Shown one piece after another: positions 54,572 through 55,997 of a DNA stretch of 64,000 nt (position 1 is the first letter of the stretch; every line of letters begins with the position of its first letter). Position numbers and translations under genes: made by a program. The stretch is from Candidatus Hodarchaeota archaeon. GTDB taxonomy: Archaea; Asgardarchaeota; Heimdallarchaeia; Hodarchaeales; Hodarchaeaceae. Where the stretch lies: contig JAHQWW010000001.1 of NCBI GenBank assembly GCA_029856365.1, forward strand, positions 17,548 to 81,547. Direction: 5' to 3'. The notes beneath the pieces are model-generated. The model did not search any database and was not told the origin of the DNA. It saw only the letters and a program-made list of their open reading frames with translations.

Positions 54572-55474
54572 ATGGTCGAAGTCTTTTTAGTCAAAACTGG
54601 TGATCGTGTTAAAGGTCTAAAGGTTATTTTTACGCGTTTCGAGTCAATTTTTGAATCTCTAAGAGGAAGAAAAGTTGCAATCAAACCTAATTTCAATACA
54701 GCAGACCCTCCCCCTGCTTCAACAGATATCAGGATTATTCGTGAAGTAATCGAACACTTGAAGACCTATGAGGCGAAGAATATTACAGTGGTAGAGCGGG
54801 CAGGACCAGCTGACACTAATGAAACAATGAAAACAAAGGGACTATTTGATTTACAGGAAGAAATTGGAGGTTTTGATATTCTTGATTTATCCTCTATTCC
54901 CCAATCTGAGTGGGTACATTTTCAACCAAGTCAACCTAGTGATTCTCATTGGAAGAGAGGATTTTTGTTTCCAAAATTTATCCAAGAAGTAGATGCAATA
55001 ATAGCATTACCTTGTCTTAAAACACATCGATATGGAGGCCATTTTACTTTTTCACTAAAATTAGCTGTTGGTTTAGTACCCCGACAAGGATATGATTATA
55101 TGAAAGAACTTCATTCCTCTTCTGTTATGCGAAAACTAATTGCGGAAATTAACCAAATTTATTCACCAACATTGATAATCTTAGATGGTGTCGATTCCTT
55201 CGTCGAAGAGGGTCCAGAAAAAGGGAAACTCGTTCATTCTCAAGTCATGCTTGCAAGTACTGATAGAATTGCAATCGATGCAGTAGGAGTAGCAATTCTC
55301 CGTGATCTTGGTACAACTCCAGAAGTAACAAAAGGTAGTATATTTGAACAAGAGCAGATAGCAAGGGCTGTAGAGCTTAATCTAGGGGTACGAGAACCTT
55401 CAGAGATAACAATTAGGGGTGCGGATAAAAAGAGTAATCGATATGCAGAACACATTAAAACGATGCTTTCATAA
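54572..55474 (+). CDS. DUF362-domain protein
   Basis: KVAIKPNFNTADPPPASTD, ALPCLKTHRYGGHFTFSLKLAVG, LIILDGVDSFVEEGPEKG and STDRIAIDAVGVAIL all follow the DUF362 consensus. No ferredoxin extension. Confidence 0.75.
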   Translation: MVEVFLVKTGDRVKGLKVIFTRFESIFESLRGRKVAIKPNFNTADPPPASTDIRIIREVIEHLKTYEAKNITVVERAGPADTNETMKTKGLFDLQEEIGGFDILDLSSIPQSEWVHFQPSQPSDSHWKRGFLFPKFIQEVDAIIALPCLKTHRYGGHFTFSLKLAVGLVPRQGYDYMKELHSSSVMRKLIAEINQIYSPTLIILDGVDSFVEEGPEKGKLVHSQVMLASTDRIAIDAVGVAILRDLGTTPEVTKGSIFEQEQIARAVELNLGVREPSEITIRGADKKSNRYAEHIKTMLS

Positions 55475-55997
55475 GTATTTAGGTAACTTTTCCTGGAAGA
55501 ATACGCTGTTGAAGAAACCCAAAGTCCTGTTAGTAGTTTCATGTAGTAAGAGAAAAGCCCCACAATTACATAATCATAAAATGCGAGCCTCTGAAGCCTA
55601 TAATGGTCCAATGTTTCAAGTTATTCACAAAGCCCAGGGGGAAGGTAGATGGAGTTCTTCTCTTTATTTAGGAATTGTCTCCGCAAAATACGGTTTTCTA
55701 CGAGAGGATGAATTCATTGAGTATTATGATGTGAGGATAACTGATCGCCTTGCTGAAGAACTGAAACCTCAAGTAATCCAGAGCATCATAAACTGGCATA
55801 ATGAGATGAATTTTATACTGATTTACATATTAATGGGTAAAAGCTATCTAAAATCTGTTGAAGGGTTAGATTCTAAAGTTGATGTTAAATTAATGGTCGA
55901 AAACATGGGTGGATTAGGTCTAGGCCAACGAAAATTATTAAACTTCCTAGAAAGATATTCAGAGAAGTCTAATCCCCTCACTGATTTTATGAAATGA
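55443..55997 (+). CDS. DUF6884-like protein (SCSxxK ... SAKYGxL motif family)
   Basis: VLLVVSCSKRKA...ASEAYNGPMF...LGIVSAKYGFLREDEFIEYYDVRIT matches my recollection of the DUF6884 pattern. It overlaps the DUF362 gene by 32 nt. Confidence 0.5.
   Translation: MQNTLKRCFHKYLGNFSWKNTLLKKPKVLLVVSCSKRKAPQLHNHKMRASEAYNGPMFQVIHKAQGEGRWSSSLYLGIVSAKYGFLREDEFIEYYDVRITDRLAEELKPQVIQSIINWHNEMNFILIYILMGKSYLKSVEGLDSKVDVKLMVENMGGLGLGQRKLLNFLERYSEKSNPLTDFMK

Follow-up and report, generated by a model that had tools for sequence, protein, structure and literature searches.

DUF6884 proteins as partners of TGT-like genes in Asgard archaea, and a probable DNA-modification module in Hodarchaeales

Introduction

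7-Deazaguanine modification of DNA is documented in bacteria (the Dpd system), in phages and in archaeal viruses, and we found no paper describing such modification of the chromosome in Asgard archaea. Here we analyse two adjacent genes, encoding a DUF362 and a DUF6884 protein, which precede a very divergent tRNA-guanine transglycosylase (TGT)-like gene in Candidatus Hodarchaeota archaeon. The genes lie in a stretch of 64,000 nucleotides (the window; assembly GCA_029856365.1, contig JAHQWW010000001.1, positions 17,548 to 81,547), of which a preliminary description had been made from the sequence alone. Coordinates are those of the window unless a locus is named. The TGT-like gene that follows DUF6884 is called TGT#2, and its paralogue on the opposite strand TGT#1.

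The closest described system is Dpd. In Salmonella Montevideo a TGT-family transglycosylase is encoded beside a DUF328/DUF6884 protein, DpdC, in an island of the chromosome that also contains further DNA-modification genes, and DpdC turns dPreQ0-DNA into dADG-DNA independently of DpdA and DpdB (PMC10164549). DpdC has been assigned to DUF328 (PMC5699537) and to DUF6884 (preprint 10.1101/2025.02.24.639861), so the preliminary description, which counted neither family among known Dpd components, was wrong about DUF6884. Viral ArcS2 consists of the DUF5591 core of ArcS alone and works with DpdA on DNA (PMC10516641). For DUF6884 itself, the Pfam authors describe two motifs, CxxxK and LSAxxG, and a DNA cleft like that of YaaA (PMC11701544). 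DUF362 shares Pfam clan CL0471 with LarA (PMC11770544), and no tested function for any DUF362 member was given in the papers found.

The island of the window (positions 52096-61457) is like Dpd in that a TGT-family gene stands beside a DUF6884 gene among other DNA-modification genes. Its TGT#1 protein matches phrog_887, so that here too DUF6884 is encoded with a DpdA-type transglycosylase, and we propose that, as for DpdC, the substrate would be preQ0 already present in DNA. Unlike Dpd, the island has no DpdB (a ParB/DndB-like ATPase) and no DpdD-K restriction genes, its two TGT paralogues are very divergent and miss the Pfam TGT threshold, and its DpdC-like protein has 162 aa and scores 13.7 bits on the PADLOC DpdC model, which does not amount to a match to that model. 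It is also coupled to an 810-aa N6/N4 methyltransferase, and its archaeal host lacks QueC. We estimate a probability of about 0.6 that the DUF6884 protein is a DpdC/ArcS-core-like partner of TGT#2 in a DNA-modification module, with DUF362 as a lineage-specific neighbour.

DUF6884 and TGT-like genes are adjacent across Asgard genomes

The DUF6884 gene occupies positions 55509..55997 of the forward strand (162 aa from a conserved TTG codon) and TGT#2 positions 56007..57080 of the same strand (357 aa). The DUF6884 ORF thus ends at 55997 directly upstream of the TGT#2 start at 56007, as the preliminary description had reported.

Linkage was searched for in a sample of 251 Asgard genomes. Within the genus of the window, the DUF6884 gene and the TGT#2 orthologue are adjacent in all 16 genomes carrying them. 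Orthologues of TGT#2 (at least 59% identity) were found only in this genus, in 15 of 16 other genomes, and each lies directly after a DUF6884 gene. The core order DUF6884, TGT#2, MTaseB (a DNA methyltransferase), YjbQ is kept in 21 of 22 loci of the genus, the exception being locus L001, which has no MTaseB. In every other examined locus MTaseB comes after TGT#2, either directly or, in an extended form of the island, past a gene for a transporter of the major facilitator superfamily (MFS). TGT#1 lies divergently upstream in most of the 22 loci.

Outside the genus, adjacency of DUF6884 and TGT genes was observed in at least six further Asgard genera. Four genomes (G086, G169, G026 and G074) encode DUF6884 proteins of 394-533 aa beside TGT genes that are positive by Pfam or by hidden Markov model (HMM), and further DUF6884 genes beside TGT genes identified in the same way are present in G213, G050, G041, G058, G083, G249 and G174. 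The two are also fused, in both orders: DUF6884 comes first in a protein of 795 aa in G061 (L119 679-3066(-)), and TGT comes first in proteins of 643 aa in G244 (L122 419-2350(-)) and 594 aa in G169 (L121 3692-5476(-)). For a 3.5-Mb genome, the probability of chance adjacency within 5 kb is well below 1% per gene; because related lineages are involved, the cases were counted as at least seven separate architectures and not treated as a statistical test. The linkage with TGT-like genes that the preliminary description had supposed for both families is therefore recurrent in Asgard archaea as far as DUF6884 is concerned, in all 16 genomes of the genus, at least six further genera and three genomes with fusions, and DUF6884 is firmly linked to such genes, in the window as the dedicated partner of TGT#2.

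Other arrangements of the family were also seen. An independent module in G086 (contig C28; L036 6911-10754) consists of a 533-aa DUF6884 gene overlapping a 432-aa Pfam-positive TGT gene, with a second TGT gene (321 aa) in convergent orientation. Proteins of 483-488 aa, in which a C-terminal DUF6884 domain follows an N-terminal region of about 330 aa without an assigned family, are encoded at L116 1820-3271(+), L117 2659-4122(-) and L118 3297-4763(-), and TGT-like fragments occur in the ORFs neighbouring them. The first of these loci belongs to G102, a genome of the window's genus, where it represents a second DUF6884 system besides the island.

Apparent homology of DUF6884 to the ArcS catalytic core

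In the preliminary description the protein had been called DUF6884-like from the pattern VVSCSKRK...EAYNGPMF...SAKYGFL...YYDVRIT. The pattern is present in the translation, and a search with PF21818 confirmed the assignment (E 7.8e-12, 45.9 bits, profile positions 2-130 of 135; Pfam gathering score 30 bits). When 31 homologues were aligned, C12, K16, S58, A59 and G62 proved invariant, and K60 and Y61 are likewise invariant in the family; C12 and K16 form the Cx3K motif and residues 58-62 the SAxxG motif. Both of the motifs noted by the Pfam authors are thus found in the window's protein, as SCSKRK and VSAKYG. The YaaA model (PF03883) gave 19 bits (E 1.1e-3), under its gathering threshold of 29.6, and the match to the PADLOC DpdC model (E 0.0076) covers only positions 49-108 of 312. 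PDC-M57A was matched better than the DpdC model, at 7e-10; no mention of PDC-M57 was found in the literature.

NCBIfam gave no match for the DUF6884 protein, a tblastn search of 50,697 phage records gave one marginal match only, and a sequence search of the Protein Data Bank (PDB) with the DUF6884 profile gave nothing meaningful. A scan of genome contigs with the DUF6884 alignment recovered only Hodarchaeales/Heimdall metagenome-assembled genomes and no new lineages.

The AlphaFold (AF2) model of the protein has a pLDDT of 92.5. Its best fold match in the PDB is 2Q07 (E 1.6e-3, prob 1.0, TMq 0.53), an ArcS-type protein with DUF5591 and PUA domains; its sequence contains PCTARKPY and gives a match at 5.7e-22 to the ArcS encoded by the window's genome. 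Among viral fold matches, phage DUF6884 proteins rank highest (E 4e-10 to 7e-7). Among the folds that the preliminary description had put forward for comparison, glycosylases of the SMUG1 type were matched weakly (E 0.02-0.1) and YaaA was not among the top 50; the ArcS-type structure was the best.

Profiles were also compared with hhalign. A diverse DUF6884 alignment matched the DUF5591 profile with 85% probability (E 6e-6, 136 columns), and unrelated controls stayed below 1%. In this alignment SCSKRK is paired with PCSAKKPY, SAKYG with TSPLG and YD with YD, so that Cx3K, S-x-x-G and YD are in register. Of the ArcS motif PCx3KPYx2Sx2H, the C-x3-K is kept in DUF6884 and the P, the PY and the S-x2-H are not. 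The relation is clear only with the more diverse DUF6884 profile: a narrow alignment reached 7.5% probability only against the DUF5591 profile and found nothing against a single ArcS sequence. The Pfam DUF5591 model (PF17884) is not reached by the DUF6884 protein, for which Pfam gives DUF6884 and the weak YaaA match only; one Asgard DUF6884 protein matches the DUF5591 HMM at 9.6e-5. Because of the fold match to 2Q07 and the 85% profile alignment with motifs in register, DUF6884/DpdC and the ArcS catalytic core (DUF5591) appear to be remote homologues, a relation stated in no paper found that mentions DUF5591 or DUF6884. Such homology would suggest a testable attack of the Cys-Lys pair on a nitrile, covering enzymes that partner TGTs on tRNA and on DNA.

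Like viral ArcS2 (PMC10516641), the DUF6884 protein is a small stand-alone domain encoded beside a DpdA-type gene, and we propose that it acts, as the ArcS core does, on the nitrile of inserted preQ0. Unlike the ArcS proteins it has no PUA domain and no adjacent radical-SAM partner, and it scores below the Pfam DUF5591 threshold. The apparent kinship with a core that works on tRNA (2Q07 being the closest fold relative), and the ancestry of TGT enzymes as tRNA enzymes, would also suit a second archaeosine-type pathway in which the DUF6884/TGT-like pair acts on tRNA or rRNA. We regard this as improbable: neither DUF6884 nor TGT#2 has a PUA or other RNA-binding domain in Pfam, the pair is always followed by a DNA methyltransferase of family PF01555 (L001 apart), TGT#1 matches the phage DpdA family phrog_887, and a complete set of ArcTGT, ArcS and radical-SAM genes is already present elsewhere in the genome.

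The relation to YaaA (DUF328, 5CAJ) and Bacillus subtilis YfjM bears on a different explanation. The window's protein shares its Pfam family and both motifs with YfjM, and DNA binding and base flipping have been proposed for YaaA and YfjM (PMC11701544); unlike the window's gene, neither YaaA nor YfjM is encoded with TGT-like genes. A non-enzymatic accessory of this type, which would bind DNA, flip bases or recognise lesions, might offer the TGT-like enzyme its target guanine, or an abasic intermediate, and so replace DpdB. The YaaA-like fold with a positively charged DNA cleft described by the Pfam authors, and the reported binding of abasic and RNA-base lesions by YfjM (PMC11701544), agree with such a role, as do the weak YaaA match (PF03883, E 1e-3), the weak SMUG1-type matches and the absence of DpdB from the island. 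We nevertheless think it unlikely, since Cys12 and Lys16 are invariant, as catalysis would predict, and are aligned to the catalytic PCx3K of the ArcS core; moreover, the characterised member DpdC is an enzyme independent of DpdA and DpdB (PMC10164549), and phage DpdAs need no DpdB (PMC10516641).

A further combination of the two families was observed in G037 (C47:86409-88673), where a 255-aa frame with DUF5591 only, resembling ArcS2, adjoins a 264-aa DUF6884/YaaA-like match on the opposite strand.

Start of the DUF6884 gene

According to the preliminary description the DUF6884 ORF begins 32 nt before the stop codon of DUF362. This overlap needs a start at ATG 55443, which would give a protein of 184 aa; locus comparison points instead to TTG 55509, 34 nt past the DUF362 stop. 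A start codon stands 2-6 codons (usually 5) ahead of the first beta-strand in 19 of 19 related loci, as ATG in six short-form loci and as TTG in the remainder, including all nine that are linked to DUF362. In four of the DUF362-linked loci a purine-rich GGAAGA-like element is found 8-10 nt 5′ of this codon. The homologues are mostly 161-162 aa long, with the N-terminus MKxPK. An in-frame upstream ATG or GTG overlapping DUF362 is present in only four of the nine linked loci, and the gaps between the two genes, which are on the same strand, measure 4-36 nt.

The N-terminal extension of the long ORF (MQNTLKRCFHKY...) was considered as support for it. Since the DNA encoding this extension also encodes, in a different frame, the conserved 3′ end of DUF362, and five of the nine linked loci either lack the extension or have it closed, the long ORF was rejected. 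Most likely the overlap arises artificially from choosing the first ATG, and the two genes are probably close and non-overlapping, because the start is conserved in 19 of 19 loci, an upstream start exists in only four of nine, and the homologues have 161-162 aa. The DUF362 start, ATG 54572, is common to its orthologues (consensus MxxVxLVxTxDR). Both ORFs are real genes, judged by orthologues of 45-86% identity in many genomes.

DUF362 joined the island in one sub-clade

The DUF362 gene (PF04015; 54572..55474, forward strand) encodes a protein of 300 aa. It had been described as matching its family along its whole length. The profile is indeed fully covered (positions 1-199 of 200, E 2.2e-38, 132.8 bits, gathering threshold 24 bits), but the match takes in only residues 35-240 of 300, about two thirds of the protein. 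A LarA-like fold, one of those proposed for comparison in the preliminary description, is indicated by the AF2 model (pLDDT 91.9): the 14 best PDB fold matches, all with E <1e-3, are all LarA-family enzymes. The protein resembles LarA, a nickel-pincer nucleotide enzyme (DUF2088/Lar_N; PMC11770544), in its fold matches and its clan. Unlike LarA, it has 300 aa rather than about 420 and no Pfam match to Lar_N (PF09861), and the fold matches reach a TMq of only 0.38-0.48. The genome encodes LarC, LarE and true LarA homologues, which permits, and does not show, use of the nickel-pincer cofactor by DUF362.

Full-length DUF362 orthologues (41-64% identity) are present in about 100 of the 251 Asgard genomes, in many families. 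No TGT or DUF6884 gene was found within about 8 kb in the 15 unlinked DUF362 loci examined, where the neighbours are unrelated, and bacterial orthologues (50-52% identity) sit among aldo-keto reductases, a CoA-transferase, a dehydratase and TPP enzymes. Within the genus, DUF362 lies beside the DUF6884-TGT pair in seven genomes and on another contig in three, and six gave no orthologue match; nine of the 16 genomes with the pair therefore have no DUF362 beside it. It occurs in the island only in extended-form loci, alongside MTaseA and the MFS gene, and on the TGT#2 tree the linked loci cluster, consistent with a single origin. The linked copy is the sole orthologue in those genomes. Its identity is 61-64% to unlinked copies of the genus and 50-56% to those of other families, by which measure its divergence does not exceed that of the species.

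The supposed linkage with TGT-like genes is thus not supported for DUF362, which is linked in one sub-clade only and unlinked in the 15 loci examined among those of about 100 Asgard genomes. Because its orthologues are widespread with unrelated neighbours, its linkage is confined to one sub-clade and its divergence is no faster, we read DUF362 as a widely conserved enzyme with a LarA-like fold that moved into the divergent spacer of the island in one sub-clade, where a single event would account for its presence. Co-transcription with the DUF6884-TGT#2 pair is probable, but a part in base exchange is not supported. Annotation of DUF362 as a pathway member is unwarranted from this single neighbourhood. 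Of the proposal that both proteins make, process or deliver the substrate of the base-exchange enzyme or act on the modified base, there remains the last part for DUF6884, for which action on the modified base is the best reading; for DUF362, widespread with unrelated neighbours, the proposal is not borne out.

DUF362 and the co-gained MFS transporter might instead be working parts of the island, the transporter importing a precursor and the LarA-like enzyme making from it the base for one of the two TGT-like enzymes. The sub-clade with DUF362 in the island is also the one with MFS and MTaseA; DUF362 lies within the island, shortly before DUF6884 and on its strand, in nine of nine extended loci; a DUF362 paralogue is found near a g1-type DUF6884 gene in an unrelated Asgard family (L115); and the genus is without QueC. 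We hold this explanation doubtful, for the linked copy is the sole orthologue and evolves like its unlinked counterparts, the approximately 100 orthologues elsewhere, as far as the 15 loci examined go, and the bacterial ones (about 50% identity) have neither TGT nor DUF6884 as neighbours, short-form islands work without DUF362, and the TGT#2 tree calls for one or two linkage events only. LarA-type chemistry, moreover, concerns 2-hydroxy acids and has no obvious place in deazapurine synthesis.

Locus L115 (G058:C57:53500-64000) contains at 3768-5438(-) a g1-type DUF6884 gene closely related to that of the window (129 bits to the HMM of the genus), with the DUF362 paralogue (58 bits) following it on that strand after 345 nt. 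TGT-like genes are absent within 5 kb, and this is the sole DUF6884-DUF362 adjacency seen outside the window's genus.

Substrate supply and a proposed route to the modified base

TGT#2 was related to other TGT proteins by hhalign, with probabilities of 97% to TGT#1 and 95% to Asgard proteins that are Pfam-TGT-positive. Its invariant residues include D62-S63-G64, with the Asp of the DSG motif, and D208. The genome also encodes a canonical ArcTGT, an ArcS whose gene is followed by one for a radical-SAM protein, and a transporter of the YhhQ/Vut_1 family.

A search of 21 genus genomes, some of them 96-99% complete, gave no QueC above the NCBIfam cut-off, though ArcTGT and ArcS are present. A candidate QueC beside a QueD-like gene on contig C154 proved to be ThiI-like, and the strongest QueC-like match in the genome is LarE, not QueC. 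Because QueC is missing from these 21 genomes, the lineage probably salvages preQ0. Salvage fits a preQ0-based DNA mark without proving one.

DUF6884, TGT#2 and MTaseB probably make up the conserved core of a module for DNA modification on the chromosome of Asgard archaea of the Hodarchaeales type. Family membership, folds, gene linkage and fusions are observed; for the reaction we infer DNA as the target, and substrate and chemistry as follows. One or both TGT-like enzymes would replace a guanine of the DNA by a 7-deazaguanine base obtained by salvage, preQ0 being the likeliest. Next, the DUF6884 protein would bind the DNA and flip the inserted base out, and the invariant Cys12/Lys16 of Cx3K, with Ser58-x-x-x-Gly62, would work on its 7-cyano group. 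Candidate products are dADG, dG+ or dCDG. The analogues for these steps are DpdC, which turns the nitrile into the amide of dADG, and the ArcS core acting on tRNA. A minimal 162-aa partner of the DpdC type, strictly coupled to a divergent TGT and MTaseB and with neither DpdB nor a nuclease, suggests an epigenetic or protective mark and not classical restriction.

Several observations weigh against this reading. Bacterial DpdA needs DpdB, and the eight island proteins gave neither a match to Dpd models (DpdB, DpdD-K) besides the weak DpdC match nor a ParB-type Pfam match. The DpdC match itself stands at only 13.7 bits, to a model twice as long as the DUF6884 protein. For TGT#2, Pfam gives no match, a PDB search with its profile found no solved TGT by sequence, and we infer its activity from the conserved Asp motifs only. 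As QueC is missing in the genus, preQ0 would have to come from outside the cell, and short-form islands have no transporter of their own. The YaaA structure 5CAJ, the fold relative named by Pfam, is absent from the top 50 PDB fold matches of the DUF6884 model. DUF362 was inserted exactly inside the island, 4-36 nt before DUF6884, and has been kept in all members of the sub-clade with the gained MFS gene, and the adjacency at L115 in another family leaves room for a functional tie.

A bolder scheme would make the extended island a self-contained salvage-and-write system for a DNA base other than preQ0, in which the MFS transporter imports a precursor, DUF362 converts it, the two TGT paralogues insert one base or two, and DUF6884 finishes the product. 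We consider this very improbable; if true, it would represent an undescribed DNA modification in the archaeal lineage closest to eukaryotes.

Other features of the loci

At the left end of the island, MTaseA (52096..53466, forward strand) encodes a type II-like DNA methyltransferase of 456 aa (PADLOC MTase_II, 3.9e-39). TGT#1 (53459..54409, reverse strand; 316 aa) is DpdA-like and belongs to the TGT superfamily, with matches to phrog_887 at 1.3e-25 and to TIGR00432 at 7.8e-8. It is transcribed divergently from the series DUF362-DUF6884-TGT#2-MFS-MTaseB-YjbQ, from which it is separated by a spacer of 162 bp (54410..54571), identified from the sequence and by locus comparison; in short-form loci the equivalent spacer lies immediately before DUF6884. 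To the right of TGT#2, on the forward strand, are the MFS gene (57117..58415; MFS_1, 3.5e-39), MTaseB (58553..60985; 810 aa, an N6/N4 DNA methyltransferase matching PF01555 at 2.5e-41) and the YjbQ/UPF0047 gene (60972..61457; PF01894, 1.8e-33). MTaseA and MFS are restricted to extended-form islands in the locus comparison, and YjbQ is the conserved right flank of both island forms, coming next after MTaseB in nearly every locus. Read as its longest ORF, from TTG 60972, YjbQ would share 14 nt (60972-60985) with the end of MTaseB.

Outside the island, ArcS is encoded on contig C9 of the window's genome (G000; L046 526-3469) as a protein of 641 aa with the motif PCSAKKPYSKSKSH. A gene with a CxxxCxxC radical-SAM-like motif begins 2 nt later and is probably the RaSEA partner, and ArcTGT lies on the same contig about 20 kb from ArcS. 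The YhhQ/Vut_1 transporter gene is at C3:33208-33738.

Two loci of the genus differ in content. L001 (CP070760.1, 3799-9210) appears to carry a decayed island, with MTaseA broken into two ORFs, a TGT#2 match of only 296 residues, and no MFS or MTaseB gene. L003 contains, at 8644-10245, an extra ORF of 533 aa with no Pfam family between TGT#2 and MFS.

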